Shown here in pieces: positions 4,375-61,196 of a stretch of 64,000 nt of DNA. Position 1 is the stretch's first letter. Every line of letters begins with the position of its first letter. Below the pieces are notes generated by a model. That model saw nothing but the letters and a program-made list of their open reading frames with translations, had not been told where the DNA came from and searched no databases. The translations under genes were made by a program, and so were the position numbers. Source of the stretch: Gammaproteobacteria bacterium (GTDB taxonomy: Bacteria > Pseudomonadota > Gammaproteobacteria > UBA4575); assembly GCA_963422595.1 (NCBI GenBank), contig OY730298.1, forward strand, positions 244,470-308,469, read 5' to 3'.

Positions 4375-5262
4375 CTAGTCGGGGCCGTTACGCGCATAAA
4401 ATATGTCGTCCATTTCCTGTTTGAGCTGCTGCCTGATGGCGGCTAACTGATGCGCCTGCAATGCATTTCTGTCGTTTCCAAACAGGTAGTTGTCTATGTT
4501 GAAATGGCGTAACAGCATTTTGGTATGAAAGATGTTTTCCGACGCCAGGTTCATGTCTGTCATGCGGTACTGCTTGCTGATACGAGCCGATAAAAAATCC
4601 TGCATTGAGCGAATGTCATGATCGAGGTAATATTTCCGTCCGGCCGTGTCGCGCGTAAATCCGCGCACCCGATAGTCCAGTATCACGATGTCTGCGTCAA
4701 AACTGTCGATCAGATAGTTCAGGGCCTGCAGCGGAGATACGCGCCCACAGGTGGATATGTCCAGGTCGGCGCGAAACGTGTTAATGCCGTTACCGGAACG
4801 ACACTCGGGATAGGTATGCGCCGTTACGTGGCTGGTATCCAGGTGCGCCATTGCCGATTTTTTTAACGCGCCGACTGCCACCTCCGCGCGCGCGTTGCGC
4901 CGGGAGGTAGCAGCGGCAGTCATCACTGGCTGTTCCGAGATCAGGCAGGCAACACTGGCACCACGTGGTTCATAGTCGTGCGTGGCTACATGTAAAATAT
5001 TGGCGCCGATGATTGCGGCAACTTCGGCAAGTACCCGTTGTAAGCGTCGCGTGCCGTAGGTTGCATCTATATATTGCAGATATTCCCGTTGCTGCGTCGG
5101 CGTTTGCGTATAACGAATATCATAAAAATTAATACTTAAGGTCTTGGTAATGTGGTTAAGCCCAGGTGCCTTGATGGCAGTATCTCTGTAGATGTCGTGG
5201 TTGCCGGAAGATTTGCCACGTCGGGTGGCGTTAGTTGTCAGCTTCCAGTATTGCATAATCAT
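4375..5262 (-). CDS. speD: S-adenosylmethionine decarboxylase proenzyme (class II, SpeD)
   Basis: The HITKTLSINFYD region aligns with E. coli SpeD (LTKSLSFCIYD), and the rest is collinear. The N-terminus is about 25 aa longer than E. coli and overlaps the 3' end of the upstream gene, so the exact start is uncertain. Confidence 0.85.
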   Translation of the reverse strand: MIMQYWKLTTNATRRGKSSGNHDIYRDTAIKAPGLNHITKTLSINFYDIRYTQTPTQQREYLQYIDATYGTRRLQRVLAEVAAIIGANILHVATHDYEPRGASVACLISEQPVMTAAATSRRNARAEVAVGALKKSAMAHLDTSHVTAHTYPECRSGNGINTFRADLDISTCGRVSPLQALNYLIDSFDADIVILDYRVRGFTRDTAGRKYYLDHDIRSMQDFLSARISKQYRMTDMNLASENIFHTKMLLRHFNIDNYLFGNDRNALQAHQLAAIRQQLKQEMDDIFYARNGPD

Positions 5263-7720: not shown

Positions 7721-7797
7721 GGGCCCGTAGCTCAGTTGGTCAGAGCAGAGGACTCATAATCCTTTGGTCGTAGGTTCGAGTCCTACCGGGCCCACCA
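7721..7797 (+). tRNA. tRNA with CAU anticodon, most similar to tRNA-Ile2 (lysidine, ileX-like); elongator tRNA-Met is not excluded
   Basis: Cloverleaf: acceptor GGGCCCG/CGGGCCC, D-arm GCTC..GAGC, anticodon loop cTCATAAt, T-arm GTAGG TTCGAGT CCTAC, and a 3' CCA. G1-C72 is paired, so it is not an initiator. The anticodon stem-loop GACTCATAATC and variable loop TGGTCG match E. coli ileX, which also lies next to rpoD. Confidence 0.85.
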
Positions 7798-57224: not shown

Positions 57225-57809
57225 ATGATATTGATGATCGACAATTATGACTCGTTCACTTATAACCTGGTGCAGTACTTGGGCGAACTGGGTGAAGAGG
57301 TAAAAGTGGTGCGCAATGATAAAATCAGTATCGGTGAAATCAGGGTGTTGCAACCGGATCACGTGGTAATTTCTCCCGGTCCCTGCACACCCAATGAAGC
57401 CGGCATTTCACTGCAAGTTGTTGCTGAATTAGGTGGAGAAATACCAATTTTAGGGGTTTGTCTTGGACATCAAAGTATCGGTCAGGCTTATGGCGGCAAA
57501 ATTGTGAAGGCGCGCGCGGTTATGCACGGTAAGACTTCAATGGTGCATCATGACAATACAGACGTTTTTGAGAAGTGTGATAATCCCTTTACCGCAACCC
57601 GTTATCATTCGTTAGTAATCGATAAGGAAAGTGTTCCGAAATGTTTGGAAATTACTGCCTGGACGCAATCGAATACAGGCGAGTTTGATGAAATTATGGG
57701 CGTCAGGCATAAGCAGTTTGCCGTGGCCGGTGTGCAGTTTCATCCTGAATCGATACTCACTGACTTTGGACATCATTTGCTAGGTAACTTTATTCGTCAA
57801 CATAGCTAG
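57225..57809 (+). CDS. trpG: anthranilate synthase component II (glutamine amidotransferase)
   Basis: [26 protein letters not shown] triad region. Confidence 0.92.
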
Positions 57810-57827
57810 GCAGTACTACACAGGACT

Positions 57828-58847
57828 TTGAATATTCAGCAGGCAATTCAGGTTGTTGTCGAAGGTGATGACCTGACAACGGAGCAGATGACTGCAGTGA
57901 TGCGCGCAGTGATGACAGGCGTGGCTACCTCTGCACAAATCGCTGGTTTGTTGGTAGCCCTGCGTATGAAAGGTGAAACGGTCGCCGAGCTTGGTGCTGC
58001 CGCCTCGGTAATGCGTGAGCTGTCTGCAAAAGTCAGCGTGTCCACAGAAGGTCTTGTGGATACTTGCGGCACCGGCGGGGACGCGAAACATACGTTTAAT
58101 ATTTCCACCGCGGCGGCATTTGTGGTGGCGGCAGCCGGTGCCAGAGTGGCAAAACATGGTAACCGCTCTGTATCCGGCAACAGCGGCAGTGCCGATTTGT
58201 TAGAGGCCGCCGGCGTGAATTTGCGCCTGACACCAGACCAGGTGGCAGGCTGTATAGAAGAGTTGGGAGTTGGGTTTTTGTTTGCCCCCCTGCATCATGG
58301 CGCCATGCAGCATGCCATTGAACCTCGTAAGCAGCTTGGGGTTCGTACTATGTTTAATTTATTGGGGCCATTGACGAACCCGGCCGGCACTCCTTATCAG
58401 CTTGTTGGTGTATTCAATGCGGATTGGTTGGAACCGCTGGTAAAAGTCCTGCGATCATTGGGCAGTCAACGTGTTTTAGTCGTGCATGCACAAGATGGGT
58501 TGGATGAGGTCAGTATTGCCAGTGACACTGAAATTGCGGAATTGAAAGATAACGAGATTAGCCGTTATCAAATCTCTCCACAACAATTTGGCATTGCCCA
58601 AGGCAGGCTTGATGACATCGTGGTGCAAAACGCAGTGCAGAGTTTGCAGTTGGTGAACCATGTCTTCAGTAACAAACCGGGTGCTGGTTTGGATATAGTA
58701 AAACTGAATGCGGGCGCCGCGCTATATGCAGGCTGTTGGGCATCATCCTTAGCTGCGGGAATTGCCATGGCCGCTGAGGCGATTGCCAGTGGCAAAGCCA
58801 AAAAGAAGTTTCAACAGTACATCGAATTTACCAACAGTATGAATTAA
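57828..58847 (+). CDS. trpD: anthranilate phosphoribosyltransferase
   Basis: GTGGDAKHTFNIST, NRSVSGNSGSAD. Confidence 0.95.
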   Translation: MNIQQAIQVVVEGDDLTTEQMTAVMRAVMTGVATSAQIAGLLVALRMKGETVAELGAAASVMRELSAKVSVSTEGLVDTCGTGGDAKHTFNISTAAAFVVAAAGARVAKHGNRSVSGNSGSADLLEAAGVNLRLTPDQVAGCIEELGVGFLFAPLHHGAMQHAIEPRKQLGVRTMFNLLGPLTNPAGTPYQLVGVFNADWLEPLVKVLRSLGSQRVLVVHAQDGLDEVSIASDTEIAELKDNEISRYQISPQQFGIAQGRLDDIVVQNAVQSLQLVNHVFSNKPGAGLDIVKLNAGAALYAGCWASSLAAGIAMAAEAIASGKAKKKFQQYIEFTNSMN

Positions 58848-58850
58848 ATT

Positions 58851-59648
58851 GTGACGGATCAACCGGAAATCCTTGCACAAATTCTCGACCACAAGAAGCA
58901 TGAGCTTGTCGAGCGCAAACAACGTATATCTTTGGAGAAAATGCAGGAGTGGGCCAATGATGCACCCCACCCAAGAGGATTTGAATCGGCATTACGCAAT
59001 GCGCGGCTGGCTAAACGTCCCGGCGTGATCGCCGAGATCAAACGCGCCTCTCCCAGTAAGGGGATTTTAAGAGAAAATTTTGACCCCATGCAGATCGCGG
59101 CCAGCTATCAGATGAACGGGGCAACCTGTGTTTCCGTGGTAACGGATAACGAATTCTTTAAGGGTTCCTGCGCCATTCTGGAGTTAGCGCGCAAAACCTG
59201 CTTTGCCCCGATGTTACGCAAGGATTTCATTATTGACCCTTATCAGGTCTATGAGACGCGCGCTGTGGATGCCGACTGTTTGCTATTAATCGTAGCGGCG
59301 TTAGCTGATGATCAAATGACAGAACTTTATCAGCTTGCTAAAGAAATGCGCCTGGACGTGCTGATAGAAGTACATAATGAACAGGAGCTACATCGCGCGC
59401 TTACGCTAAAGCCGACGTTGCTGGGCATCAATAATCGTGATTTGCGCACTTTTGCAACGACTTTGGATACAACGTTAAATATATTACCTAAGGTTCCGGA
59501 TACTTGTCACGTGGTAACGGAAAGTGGCATACATAGCAGAGATGACGTCGCCATGATGATGGAAAACGGCGTGAATTCCTTTCTTGTAGGCGAAGCGTTT
59601 ATGCTGGCCGAAGAGCCCGGTGCTAAATTAAAAGAGTTGTTTTTCTGA
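58851..59648 (+). CDS. trpC: indole-3-glycerol phosphate synthase
   Basis: ILAQI...K..E, IAEIKRASPSKG, INNRDL motifs. 265 aa. Confidence 0.95.
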   Translation: MTDQPEILAQILDHKKHELVERKQRISLEKMQEWANDAPHPRGFESALRNARLAKRPGVIAEIKRASPSKGILRENFDPMQIAASYQMNGATCVSVVTDNEFFKGSCAILELARKTCFAPMLRKDFIIDPYQVYETRAVDADCLLLIVAALADDQMTELYQLAKEMRLDVLIEVHNEQELHRALTLKPTLLGINNRDLRTFATTLDTTLNILPKVPDTCHVVTESGIHSRDDVAMMMENGVNSFLVGEAFMLAEEPGAKLKELFF

Positions 59649-59773
59649 ATGTGTTAAACCAGCACTTTTCAGCATCACGATGCTCCTACCAACGGCTTCG
59701 GCCACGCCAGTACCGGCAGTTCAGAAGCCGTTATGCATAGGTGGTCAATCATAATCAGGGATGCGTAAAAAGC

Positions 59774-60196
59774 TTATTGAACTGAACATGTAACTCTGGT
59801 TTTTCTGGTGGCAGCAACGTTTAGCAAATGTCCGATAGCGTGGATAATGCCACCAATGATAGCAAGCCAGACTTCTGCGGAATGAGACAGAATGTGTCGG
59901 TCAATCAGGTCTTCAGCAAAAATAGCGTTGAATACTAAAATAAACAAGCCGGTTGCAGCAATTAATATGGGTACATATTTTTTATGACAACGCCGCCCGG
60001 CGATTAGCGCAACAATGCTTACCGGTAAAATGAATAATAAAATAAATTGGTGAAACCAGAATTCATGTAGTGTACTACCATGATATATAGTGGTTGCTAA
60101 GAGGGGTATCAGGCCTGCGACCAGTGGTAACGCCACGCAGTGAAGCGCGCAAATACTGGATAAGGCGATCGCAAAACGGTCAAAAAAAAGTTGCAT
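59774..60196 (-). CDS. MerC-like small metal-transporter-family membrane protein
   Basis: 140 aa with four predicted TM helices and Cys/His clusters in TM1 and the C-terminus (SSICALHC, HAIGHLL). Lies 15 bp downstream of zur. Confidence 0.55.
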   Translation of the reverse strand: MQLFFDRFAIALSSICALHCVALPLVAGLIPLLATTIYHGSTLHEFWFHQFILLFILPVSIVALIAGRRCHKKYVPILIAATGLFILVFNAIFAEDLIDRHILSHSAEVWLAIIGGIIHAIGHLLNVAATRKTRVTCSVQ

Positions 60197-60211
60197 ACAT
60201 TTCTCCTGTTA

Positions 60212-60703
60212 TTACGCGCACTGTGCGCAGGTCCCATGAATCTCAACGTTGATGAATTCGGGGATAAAGTCTTTTCTGTTGCTGGCGTCGACGATTGCCT
60301 TGTCAAGTTTTGGTGCGATTAATTCTTCAACCTCATTGCATTCATCGCAAATAAAAAACTTACTGTCGAAATCTTTATGCTCGATATTACAACCAACGTA
60401 GGCGTTTAAGCTTTCAATTCGATGCACCAGATTATTTTCACGCAGGAAGTCCAGGGCCCGATAAACGGTCGGGGGTTTTTCATTAAAATCATGCGTGCTC
60501 AACTGCGCTAAAATGTCGTAGGCCTTAACCGGTTTATGACTTTTCCAGACCATTTTTAGTACATTCTTGCGTATTGGCGTAAGCCTGCTGTGGTGTTTTG
60601 AGCATAACAACTCAGCGCGCTTTAGCGCGTCATTTACACACCTGGCATGGCGGTGTTTCTTCCACACGTTGCGTTGAATCCCTGATCTAAGTATCTTTAT
60701 CAA
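60212..60703 (-). CDS. zur: zinc uptake regulator Zur (Fur family)
   Basis: Collinear with E. coli Zur (RLTPIRKNVLKMV..., PPTVYRALDFL, FICDEC, HGTCAQCA). The real start is probably the internal GTG around 60667; the ORF-track TTG start at 60703 abuts the Zur box. Confidence 0.85.
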   Translation of the reverse strand: MIKILRSGIQRNVWKKHRHARCVNDALKRAELLCSKHHSRLTPIRKNVLKMVWKSHKPVKAYDILAQLSTHDFNEKPPTVYRALDFLRENNLVHRIESLNAYVGCNIEHKDFDSKFFICDECNEVEELIAPKLDKAIVDASNRKDFIPEFINVEIHGTCAQCA

Positions 60704-60704
60704 G

Positions 60705-60725
60705 TAATGTTATATTATAACATAT
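60705..60725. promoter_or_regulatory. Zur box (perfect 17-bp palindrome ATGTTATA-T-TATAACAT)
   Basis: TAATGTTATATTATAACATAT matches the gammaproteobacterial Zur operator consensus (rnTGTTATAwTATAACAny). It lies about 40 bp upstream of the probable zur start. Confidence 0.75.
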
Positions 60726-60914
60726 ACTGCCTGAATACACCATTAGAGATAGTCGTTCACAAAGTTTCCCTGAACCAAACTGGTCAGTGTCAATCAGGTC
60801 AGGCGTTGCGTGGTGCCAATAACTTATCGCGTCAGGAGTTAGCTCTGTGTTGGCTTTTTATGCTCGAAATGCAGGTGCTTTCAGGTAACATACGCCCAAG
60901 TAAGGAATGGAAAG

Positions 60915-61196
60915 TCAATAATGGGAGGGAAGAAAAAGTATTTGCAAAATGAAATGACCTGTTTCATGTGCGACCGTAAAGCGTTGTCGCACGTTAGGAT
61001 CATCGCCCCTGATATAGATTTCGTAGCCGCTTTTATCTCCTTGCTTATGGTCACACTTGATCATGCCAGAAATATCATTCGGCCAACCAAGCACATTGTA
61101 TACTTCCAATCCTGGCGCCACTGTTATCGGAATAACTTTGACGGGAGTTTCTTTTTGATGCTTCTCAATAATGTTCATTTGTTCACGTAGCAACAT
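60915..61196 (-). pseudogene. truncated ImmA/IrrE-family metallopeptidase remnant
   Basis: 93-aa ORF with an HEXXH motif (AHETGHFIL) near its C-terminus. It stops about 12 residues after the motif, and no continuation is found in any frame. The family assignment rests on the motif context. It lies in an AT-rich, gene-poor segment. Confidence 0.5.

Follow-up and report, generated by a model that had tools for sequence, protein, structure and literature searches.

A zur–MerC-domain gene pair behind a perfect Zur box: a candidate zinc-responsive operon with a putative zinc-relay membrane protein

The gene pair described here most plausibly forms a zinc-controlled two-gene operon, consisting of zur and a gene for a MerC-domain membrane protein that would act as a zinc relay or importer. 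We assign a probability of roughly 0.6 to this reading as a whole. Its regulatory part, repression of the zur/MerC-like operon by Zur, is a well supported prediction, and a transport function of the MerC-like protein is what we infer. The MerC-like protein is probably an undescribed component of zinc uptake, because its relatives lie in zinc-starvation gene clusters of many bacteria. The window, by which we mean the whole 64 kb stretch of DNA that was analysed, contains the following features of the locus, with the basis of each assignment given in parentheses.

60737–60742, minus strand: weak −35 region TGGTGT (sequence reading)
60714–60722, minus strand: predicted extended −10 element inside the Zur box, TGTTATAAT (sequence reading)
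60707–60723, no strand assigned: Zur box, ATGTTATA-T-TATAACAT (uniqueness in the window, fit to the published motif, conservation upstream of orthologous zur genes)
60679–60683, minus strand: possible Shine–Dalgarno sequence AGGGA, 11 nt before the zur GTG (sequence reading; the spacing is above the optimum)
60212–60667, minus strand: zur, zinc uptake regulator, 151 amino acids from GTG (Pfam FUR, NCBIfam, PDB relatives, orthologue starts)
60203–60207, minus strand: Shine–Dalgarno sequence AGGAG, 6 nt before the MerC-like ATG and within the spacer between the two genes (sequence reading)
59774–60196, minus strand: MerC-domain membrane protein, 140 amino acids, four predicted transmembrane helices (Pfam MerC, AlphaFold model, conservation, linkage)
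59691–59732, no strand assigned: hairpin AACGGCUUC ... GAAGCCGUU between the convergent MerC-like gene and trpC (RNA fold of 59640–59790)

The sequence ATGTTATATTATAACAT at 60707–60723 is a perfect 8-1-8 palindrome of 17 bp, just as the earlier note had read it. The claim that it fits the Zur operator consensus also stands: the site is an AT-rich palindrome of the gammaproteobacterial Zur-box type, and the E. coli Zur motif TRWNAYRWTATAWYRTNWCA (PMC6103462) matches positions 60703–60722 with a single mismatch and nowhere else in the window. A shorter core pattern gave nothing further above chance across the window, and no second Zur box was found in the 64 kb. On the coding (minus) strand, the palindrome overlaps TGTTATAAT, and Zur once bound would cover the −10 element of the zur promoter. 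This promoter was not called by a two-hexamer scan because its −35 region is poor. The box is located in the promoter about 39–40 nt from the GTG and is conserved in the promoters of orthologous loci. The earlier note had placed it immediately upstream of zur; it is indeed upstream, but it does not abut the start codon, since zur begins at GTG 60667, some 39 nt away.

It is very unlikely that an AT-rich promoter sequence without an operator role happens by chance to form this palindrome. AT-rich palindromes do occur in promoters and a −10-like TATAAT is present within this one, but the observed site is perfect and is the only one in the window within three mismatches of the palindrome, where 0.23 would be expected by chance. 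Upstream of orthologous zur genes, moreover, the box sequence has been retained although the DNA around it has diverged, and in unrelated taxa it is found again in front of zinc genes.

The open reading frame of zur as delimited mechanically reaches TTG 60703. This codon is unlikely to be the start, because the orthologous Zur proteins have their first residue at the position of GTG 60667 (MWKKHRH...), and AGGGA is a weak candidate for the associated Shine–Dalgarno sequence. The product contains the winged-helix and dimerization domain of the Fur family (Pfam FUR, 41.5 bits against a cut-off of 23.1, residues 39–154 of the long reading frame). Its best NCBIfam match is Zur PRK11639 (116 bits, E = 1.4e-33), with the Fur and PerR models at 2.6e-8 or weaker. 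The score lies below the curated equivalog cut-off of 167 bits and the protein is therefore best described as a divergent Zur, assigned by best-hit ranking and context. Its nearest relative in the PDB is Xanthomonas Zur (PDB entry 7DH7, E = 5e-29). E. coli Zur (PDB entry 4MTD, E = 8e-26) aligns over residues 12–150 against 7–146, which agrees with the collinearity reported previously. PerR (7e-6) and Fur (2e-4) are more distant, together reaching only about 1e-4 to 1e-6, and the product is nearer to Zur than to Fur, PerR, Mur or Nur. Two CxxC pairs, CDEC and CAQC, align with the cysteines of Xanthomonas Zur and correspond to the structural zinc site.

The zur stop codon and the ATG of the MerC-like gene are separated by a spacer of exactly 15 nt (60197–60211), as had been claimed, and the ATG follows the AGGAG motif. 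On the minus strand, the terminator scan found no terminator-like site in the spacer. Beyond the pair, the hairpin at 59691–59732 may, on weak evidence, mark the end of the transcript: the fold z-score of the stretch 59640–59790 is only −1.3, neither strand carries a U-run after the hairpin, and the scan called neither this hairpin nor any other terminator after the operon.

The second gene encodes a protein that matches Pfam MerC (PF03203) above the gathering threshold over essentially the whole domain (72.8 bits against a cut-off of 27.6, profile positions 1–107 of 108) and that contains the motifs CALHC and HAIGH. Its earlier description as a MerC-family-like four-TM protein rich in Cys and His is thus borne out. 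No Pfam family other than MerC matches at E values of up to 10; identity with ZrgD (DUF2607) was considered and rejected, there being no signal even at that level. AlphaFold predicts a four-helix bundle (pLDDT 82) with helices 2–34, 41–71, 75–99 and 105–139. Lys and Arg residues number eight on the N-terminus, the loop between helices 2 and 3 and the C-terminus, against one on the other two loops (1–2 and 3–4), a distribution that puts both predicted ends in the cytoplasm. A search for solved structures that specifically resemble this protein found none. A four-helix bundle of 140 amino acids is not an established transporter fold.

The family assignment raises the question of whether this is an ordinary mercury-resistance MerC that imports Hg2+ for reduction, which we consider very unlikely. 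The Pfam match spans the whole profile and Tn21 MerC matches the same model with 90.8 bits, but the direct profile-to-sequence comparison with Tn21 MerC is weak (probability 8.7%) and covers the N-terminal half only. The paired C-A-A-C of mer-type proteins in TM1 is replaced by C-A-L-H-C, a C-x3-C arrangement with an invariant histidine, and C16, H19, H49, E108, H123 and N126 are all missing from Tn21 MerC. The genomic context also argues against a mercury function. The gene stands behind a Zur box, the pair is flanked by trpC with no mer-operon gene (merR, merT/P or merA) adjoining it, and no mer genes are present among the listed and scanned open reading frames of 14 related loci. A canonical mercury MerC was consequently rejected on motif and gene context.

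The key residues of the MerC-like protein are D6, C16, H19, C20, H39, H44, H49, H71, E108, H119, H123 and N126. In an alignment of 70 sequences with a mean identity of 31%, C16, H19, C20, H123 and N126 are invariant, while conservation reaches 90% or more at D6, H49, H71 and E108. All nine are near-invariant among the best-scoring cluster representatives, occurring in 126–143 of 144. The branch of MerC proteins outside mer operons is thus marked by a near-invariant set C-x2-H-C, H, H, E and H-x2-N that Tn21 MerC lacks. Judged from helix positions only, the ligands of the MerC-like protein are predicted to cluster in space.

The interpretation of the two genes as a Zur-controlled pair is supported by related genomes. 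The order zur then MerC-like gene is kept in all 14 related loci. The box before zur has at least 13 of 16 matches in 12 of them, where it lies 16–62 nt before the gene, and 12 of 16 in the other two. Elsewhere in the 111.6 kb, the only such boxes are one before a divergent TonB-dependent receptor gene and a tandem second box. In six relatives (L002, L003, L005, L008, L009 and L010) the pair is followed by zrgA, zrgB (ABC ATPase), zrgC (FtsX-type permease) and a DUF3299 gene. A second box was not found between the pair and the zrg genes, which in L003 and L009 begin only 3–7 nt past the pair. No homologue of ZrgA, ZrgC or DUF3299 and no receptor gene was found in the 64 kb window.

More distant MerC-domain loci were gathered by exact look-up of eight distant homologues. 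These genes, with 26–40% identity, come from Catenovulum, Pseudoalteromonas, Oleiphilaceae, Sphingomonas, Polymorphobacter and several metagenome-assembled genomes (MAGs), and they have Zur boxes of their own and/or zrgA, TonB-dependent receptor, COG0523 GTPase or Fur-type repressor genes as neighbours. Among the carriers are many marine or freshwater MAGs. In Catenovulum a stand-alone MerC-domain gene, adjoined by DUF3299 and ABC transporter genes, is preceded by a perfect box identical to the one described here, and boxes with 15 of 16 matches precede stand-alone genes in Pseudoalteromonas and in an Oleiphilaceae MAG. A box is likewise found before a receptor–MerC pair (L019) and before a MerC–zrgA–Fur–MerC cluster (L025), and palindromes precede zrgA–MerC–hisI–pyrC-like operons (L023 and L027). 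The Sphingomonas arrangement is COG0523 / MerC–COG0523–repressor, while downstream of the Polymorphobacter MerC gene lie genes for a hypothetical protein, an ABC ATPase and an ABC permease, and two DUF3299 genes.

Eight of the 11 distant lineages in which the gene is not adjacent to zur thus have Zur boxes or neighbours from the Zur regulon (zrgA, DUF3299, COG0523, hisI/pyrC paralogue-like genes and Fur-type repressors). Since such boxes and neighbours are also present where zur is not adjacent, the comparison shows that the membrane protein itself, beyond zur alone, is the likely regulated object, and the earlier suggestion that it is a component of the Zur regulon gains from this. The same pattern is unexpected if the box autoregulates only zur and the MerC-like protein is a co-transcribed passenger unrelated to zinc supply, with a task such as redox or thiol chemistry or the handling of a different metal, for instance Ni, Co, Cd or Cu. 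We regard this as unlikely, even though Cys/His sites are not specific for zinc and some family members fit it. In Tolypothrix the MerC-domain gene follows an ArsR/SmtB repressor gene and is adjoined by a P-type ATPase gene, a context that points to metal excess rather than shortage. In three of the 11 lineages (L020–22 and L026) no Zur box was found. The metal may also differ between members of the family, because nikR is nearby at one Polymorphobacter locus.

A more substantial alternative, although one that we still hold to be doubtful, is that the MerC-like protein is not itself a transporter and instead assists the zinc route through ZrgABC or a TonB-dependent receptor, as an accessory protein or a membrane-bound chaperone. 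For example, ZrgA could hand its zinc to the protein, or the protein could load the ABC permease or keep a store of zinc in the membrane. Such a role would suit a small four-helix bundle whose gene is often translationally coupled to zrgA (L003, L009, L023 and L027) and which takes the slot of the small membrane protein ZrgD (DUF2607) of the Vibrio zrg operon (PMC9817125). An accessory role is possible because deletion of the small accessory zrg genes of Vibrio, those for ZrgD and ZrgE, results in little phenotype (PMC9820375). In the window, however, the pair stands alone, unaccompanied by zrgA, zrgC, DUF3299 or receptor genes, and the Zur-boxed genes of Catenovulum, Pseudoalteromonas and Oleiphilaceae are stand-alone as well. 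That the homologues MerC and MerT move metal across the membrane is established knowledge and also speaks for transport.

On the preferred reading of a zinc-controlled operon with a zinc-relaying membrane protein, the system could work as follows. When zinc is ample, zinc-loaded Zur dimers would occupy the palindrome at 60707–60723 and both genes would be shut off, because the extended −10 element of the sole plausible promoter lies within this palindrome. When zinc is short, Zur would lose its regulatory zinc and release the DNA, and both genes would be transcribed. We infer this regulatory step from sequence and conservation. The MerC-like protein would be an inner-membrane protein with cytoplasmic N- and C-termini, and it would carry periplasmic Zn2+ into the cytoplasm through successive ligand exchange between conserved Cys, His and Glu residues. 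H39, H44, H49 and E108 are candidates for a ligand group on the periplasmic side, C16, H19 and C20 of TM1 together with H119, H123 and N126 of TM4 for a site in the middle of the membrane, and H71 for a ligand on the cytoplasmic side. The template for such a relay is the inward passage of Hg2+ through MerT and MerC. In the relatives, a TonB-dependent receptor in the outer membrane and ZrgA as a periplasmic donor in the role of MerP are likely partners, and COG0523 GTPases are likely cytoplasmic acceptors. Residue conservation, predicted topology and gene neighbourhood are the basis of this proposed relay.

A wider proposal can be made tentatively, and taken jointly we would not put it at even odds. 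The non-mer MerC branch may represent widespread unrecognized Zur-regulated inner-membrane zinc importers that are recognizable by C-x2-H-C, H, H, E and H-x2-N, and that relay zinc by ligand exchange in the manner of MerP and MerT, receiving it from ZrgA or a TonB-dependent receptor and delivering it to COG0523 GTPases. This branch could comprise much of the 2347 clusters at 50% identity. It would add a fourth zinc entry route to ZnuABC, ZrgABC and ZupT, and within these 64 kb of a small genome no other dedicated route is visible. A full-text literature search, which covers few subscription journals and does not include RegPrecise, returned no paper linking MerC to Zur or zinc limitation. In the searched literature, a MerC domain is mentioned only once, in one row of an expression table for Xanthomonas.

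The Zur box and the self-regulated zur are the ordinary part of this locus and the membrane protein is the useful part. A protein annotated as 'MerC domain-containing' or 'mercury resistance' emerges as a recurrent member of zinc-starvation regulons in Gammaproteobacteria and Alphaproteobacteria, with a conserved set of metal ligands distinct from that of the mercury transporters. If it moves zinc, thousands of genes would be re-annotated from mercury resistance to zinc acquisition, zinc-type TonB-dependent receptors and ZrgA would gain an inner-membrane partner, and a simple four-helix system would be available for the relay of metal across a membrane. The idea is directly testable because culturable carriers exist, namely Catenovulum adriaticum, Pseudoalteromonas sp. 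THAF3 and Sphingomonas parapaucimobilis.

Both Zur boxes and the autoregulation of zur belong to textbook knowledge. To our knowledge, E. coli zur has no box of its own upstream, whereas here zur opens the regulated operon, with the membrane-protein gene behind it. Autoregulation of zur is reported to be common, for example in Francisella novicida (PMC5786701). The regulator resembles the gammaproteobacterial Zur that controls znuABC in E. coli (PDB entry 4MTD) in being a Fur-family repressor with two CxxC pairs and Zur structures as best matches, and the operator is alike in being an AT-rich palindrome one mismatch away from the published motif. Its overlap with the promoter is also like the classic arrangement for repression by Zur, in which the operator overlaps the promoter (PMC6103462).

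The MerC-like protein shares with Tn21 MerC the Pfam family, four TM helices with the ends inside, a metal-ligand pair in the middle of TM1 and, in the alignment, residues D6, S13, P24, G67, H71, G83 and G115. The ligand-exchange relay proposed here, which would link a binding protein in the periplasm with an acceptor in the cytoplasm, is similarly modelled on MerC and MerT. Pairwise similarity to Tn21 MerC is nevertheless marginal. Only one cysteine of C-x2-H-C aligns with the C-A-A-C pair of TM1, the invariant H49, E108, H123 and N126 are additional, and the paired C-terminal cysteines of the compared Tn21 sequence (C127 and C132) are absent. The control is also opposite in sense: the MerC-like gene would be switched on at metal shortage under Zur, whereas mer genes are switched on at metal excess via MerR.

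In the six relatives with zrg genes, the locus resembles ZrgABCDE of Vibrio and PA4063–PA4066 of Pseudomonas, the pair being followed by zrgA and genes for the ABC ATPase, a MacB/FtsX-type permease and DUF3299. The MerC-like gene lies just before zrgA, in the slot that V. parahaemolyticus fills with ZrgD, which has a single transmembrane helix (PMC9820375) compared with four in the MerC-like protein.

Finally, ZupT/ZIP and other inner-membrane zinc permeases under Zur control have the same job as is proposed here, a Zur-switched entry of Zn2+ through the inner membrane. ZIP proteins have eight helices, and the MerC-like protein, with four helices in 140 amino acids, has no sequence or fold kinship to them. 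Control by Zur would thus be the feature in common, ZupT being Zur-regulated in Francisella (PMC5786701).

The Fur-family gene zur and the MerC-like gene behind it share one putative operator, and the predicted zinc-dependent regulation of the pair by Zur is strongly supported by conservation. The elements are arranged as follows (window positions).

60714-60722, minus strand: extended −10 element TGTTATAAT, inside the palindrome
60707-60723: Zur-box palindrome ATGTTATATTATAACAT, a perfect 8-1-8 17-mer read from the sequence
60212-60703, minus strand: zur ORF, encoding a Fur-family protein (Pfam FUR)
59774-60196, minus strand: MerC-like gene, ATG at 60196, 140 amino acids, 15 nt after the zur stop and behind AGGAG
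59691-59732: hairpin without a U-run, after the operon

The palindrome is the sole site with three or fewer mismatches in the 64 kb window (0.23 expected), and a search of the window with the 15 nt core gave elsewhere just three-mismatch sites at chance level. The published E. coli Zur-site motif TRWNAYRWTATAWYRTNWCA (quoted in review PMC6103462) has a single match in the window, at 60703–60722 and with one mismatch, in line with the Zur consensus claimed for this perfect 17 bp palindrome in the earlier note; a chance sequence is a much less likely explanation. On the minus strand, the coding strand of both genes, the palindrome reads ATGTTATAATATAACAT. A repressor bound here would cover the −10 element. 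The −35 region (TGGTGT) is poor, which is why a two-hexamer scan did not call the zur promoter.

The best NCBIfam model for the zur product is Zur (E 1.4e-33); at 116 bits the match stays under the 167-bit equivalog cut-off but greatly outscores the models for Fur and PerR. Among solved structures the closest are those of Xanthomonas Zur (7DH7, 5e-29) and E. coli Zur (4MTD, 8e-26), PerR and Fur structures reaching just 1e-4 to 1e-6. It carries both CxxC pairs and, as previously proposed, is collinear with E. coli Zur (over residues 12–150). Its orthologues start M-W/R-K/E-R/K-H at the residue equivalent to GTG 60667, and the start is therefore placed at this codon, giving 151 amino acids up to the stop codon at 60212. 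The box, described earlier as "immediately upstream" of zur, is indeed upstream, separated from this start by a leader of about 40 nt.

Zur loaded with zinc would occupy the palindrome and block the −10 element. When zinc is scarce it would dissociate, and zur and the membrane protein would be co-produced. The scheme is consistent with how Zur usually acts (PMC6103462) and with zur autoregulation, which is reported to be frequent (PMC5786701). A minus-strand scan found no terminator-like site between the two genes, whose spacing is exactly the 15 nt noted before. The second product hits the entire Pfam MerC profile (72.8 bits, cut-off 27.6), confirming its family assignment, and no NCBIfam model matches it; there is no curated family there. 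The trpG, trpD and trpC genes (57225–59648, plus strand) converge on the operon, an arrangement retained in the nearest relatives L001, L007 and L012. The DNA 5′ of zur varies, holding a TonB-dependent receptor (L001), an 868-residue protein (L007) or a 212-residue ORF (L012). In the window a 93-residue ORF (60915–61196, minus strand) matches only the N-terminal part of M78 (ImmA/IrrE) peptidases, ends just past the HETGH motif and looks like a gene remnant. At gathering thresholds, Rfam matches nothing in the window except one tRNA gene (7721–7794, plus strand).

Within the close subfamily of the MerC-like protein (39 sequences), D6, C16, H19, C20, H44, F46–Q50, H71, E108, H119, H123 and N126 are invariant and H39 is nearly so. 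Searching 1.84 billion representatives with a profile retrieved 2,347 clusters at E ≤ 1e-3 and 465 at E ≤ 1e-10. Across 70 sequences with a mean identity of 31%, C16, H19, C20, H123 and N126 are invariant; conservation of 90% or more is seen for D6, S13, P24, P31, H49, P58, G67, H71, G83, E108, T112 and G115. AlphaFold predicts a four-helix up-and-down bundle (helices 2–34, 41–71, 75–99 and 105–139; pLDDT 82, pTM 0.74), for which structure comparison gave no specific solved relative. Eight Lys and Arg residues lie on the N-terminus, loop 2–3 (GRRCHKKY) and the C-terminus versus one on loops 1–2 and 3–4, which predicts a cytoplasmic location for both ends; both termini of MerC are reportedly cytoplasmic. 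In this model C16, H19 and C20 would sit in the middle of TM1 and H119, H123 and N126 in that of TM4, the helix neighbouring TM1 in such a bundle, with H39, H44, H49 and E108 on the periplasmic side and H71 on the cytoplasmic side. We propose that the protein uses ligand exchange to relay zinc through the inner membrane, by analogy with the Hg2+ route from MerP via MerT or MerC to MerA. The proposal rests on family membership, the conserved Cys/His/Glu set, predicted topology and gene neighbourhoods.

When one genome per species was scanned, 14 related loci emerged, all in gammaproteobacterial MAGs, encoding a MerC-like protein 47–66% identical to that of the window. In all 14 the next gene upstream, in the same orientation, is a zur orthologue (52–73% identical). 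A box matching at 13 or more of 16 positions lies 16–62 nt before the onset of zur similarity in 12 loci, in three of them perfect; the other two score 12/16. Over the 111.6 kb of these loci the only further sites of at least 13/16 are one in L001, in front of a divergent TonB-dependent receptor, and a tandem second box in L014, which also has such a divergent receptor. In six loci (L002, L003, L005, L008, L009 and L010) zrgA, genes for an ABC ATPase and a MacB/FtsX-type permease, and a DUF3299 gene follow directly 3′ of the pair, at 3–7 nt where measured (L003, L009) and with no second box. This four-gene follow-on is the Zrg system, which takes up zinc under Zur control in Vibrio. Zinc limitation induces the entire zrg operon of V. 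parahaemolyticus 76- to 206-fold, and ZrgD and ZrgE are small proteins without known function (PMC9817125, PMC9820375). The main rival to the zinc relay is that the protein serves the Zrg route as an accessory component or chaperone.

Several other features were noted at these loci. L007 has a tandem second MerC-like copy (4515–4925, plus strand) without the periplasmic loop and start of TM2 (the H39, H44, H49 region) and with the TM1 and TM4 ligands kept. An ArsR-type HTH-rhodanese fusion and a gene of the Haem_oxygenas_2 type (an iron-containing redox enzyme) form a conserved pair divergent from zur (L002 1794–3160; also L004, L005, L008 and L009). A conserved 92-residue ORF without Pfam matches, MK..EPEKL.KKH.KL.HSDMMKVTSHVQR..., is found on the opposite strand just past the zrg cluster or MerC-like gene (L002 7516–7794, minus strand; also L004, L005, L008, L009, L010 and L013).

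We also examined distant family members, non-orthologues of 26–40% identity. Catenovulum adriaticum (L015) has a stand-alone MerC-domain gene by DUF3299 and ABC transporter genes, with an identical perfect box about 60 nt before it and a second between DUF3299 and the ABC ATPase. In Pseudoalteromonas sp. THAF3 (L018) a 15/16 box lies 22 nt before the ATG of a stand-alone gene and another before the adjoining TonB-dependent receptor; a stand-alone gene in an Oleiphilaceae MAG (L024) has a 15/16 box. Boxes precede a receptor-MerC operon (L019, a MAG) and a MerC-zrgA-Fur-MerC operon facing a receptor (L025, a MAG). Two MAGs (L023, L027) have a zrgA-MerC-hisI-like-dihydroorotase-like operon with zrgBC/DUF3299 nearby; the palindrome ATGATATAC(C/T)ATATCAT (L023 4426 and 8541, L027 4393) precedes both gene groups and is probably the Zur-box variant of this lineage. 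In Sphingomonas parapaucimobilis (L017) a COG0523 GTPase gene and a MerC-COG0523-transcriptional repressor set share a promoter with a 13/16 site. In Polymorphobacter sp. PAMC 29334 (L028) MerC is followed by a hypothetical gene, genes for an ABC ATPase and an ABC permease, and two DUF3299 genes, with two repressor genes and a receptor close by. The zinc link thus holds in eight of 11 distant lineages, and the MerC-like membrane protein is tied to zinc uptake beyond its linkage to zur; a passenger with another function is a much less likely reading. For the proposed relay, the upstream partner in relatives would be ZrgA or a TonB-dependent receptor, and COG0523 GTPases are possible zinc acceptors.

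Three distant lineages fall outside the zinc pattern. No Zur box was found in L020–L022 and L026, which represent a lineage within Pseudomonadales and one related to it and lie next to PHO4/PhoU-type genes. On a Tolypothrix sp. PCC 7712 plasmid (L016, 4609–5369) the MerC-domain gene overlaps the 3′ end of an ArsR/SmtB metalloregulator gene and adjoins a divergent heavy-metal P-type ATPase; here the regulatory logic is reversed within the same protein family, metal excess being the inducer. A Polymorphobacter megasporae plasmid (L029, 1115–4880) has the order nikR, TonB-dependent receptor, MerC-domain gene, transcriptional repressor, so some members may serve nickel or other metals. Service to other metals or to metal excess may therefore occur within the family. 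Phosphate-related genes (PhoD, PhoX, PHO4, PhoU_div) repeatedly lie near distant MerC-domain genes (L015, L019, L020–L022, L024, L025, L026), which may reflect a zinc/phosphate scavenging link or coincidence in marine genomes.

A Zur operator before a self-regulated zur is ordinary and already known. What may be new is a candidate metal relay protein of the MerC type whose ligand set differs and which is predicted to be under zinc-starvation control. Literature searches, with incomplete coverage, found no paper tying MerC-domain proteins to Zur or zinc limitation, which is absence of evidence only. The result amounts to a well-supported prediction, open to direct testing, of a candidate family for zinc uptake and not to a new principle. 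A true mercury MerC is much less likely: Tn21 MerC (query 100% identical to annotated merC on plasmids) matches the same Pfam model with 90.8 bits, but profile-to-sequence comparison with the MerC-like family is marginal (probability 8.7%). Tn21 MerC has CAAC, whereas the MerC-like family has CxxHC, and it lacks the counterparts of H49, E108, H123 and N126.
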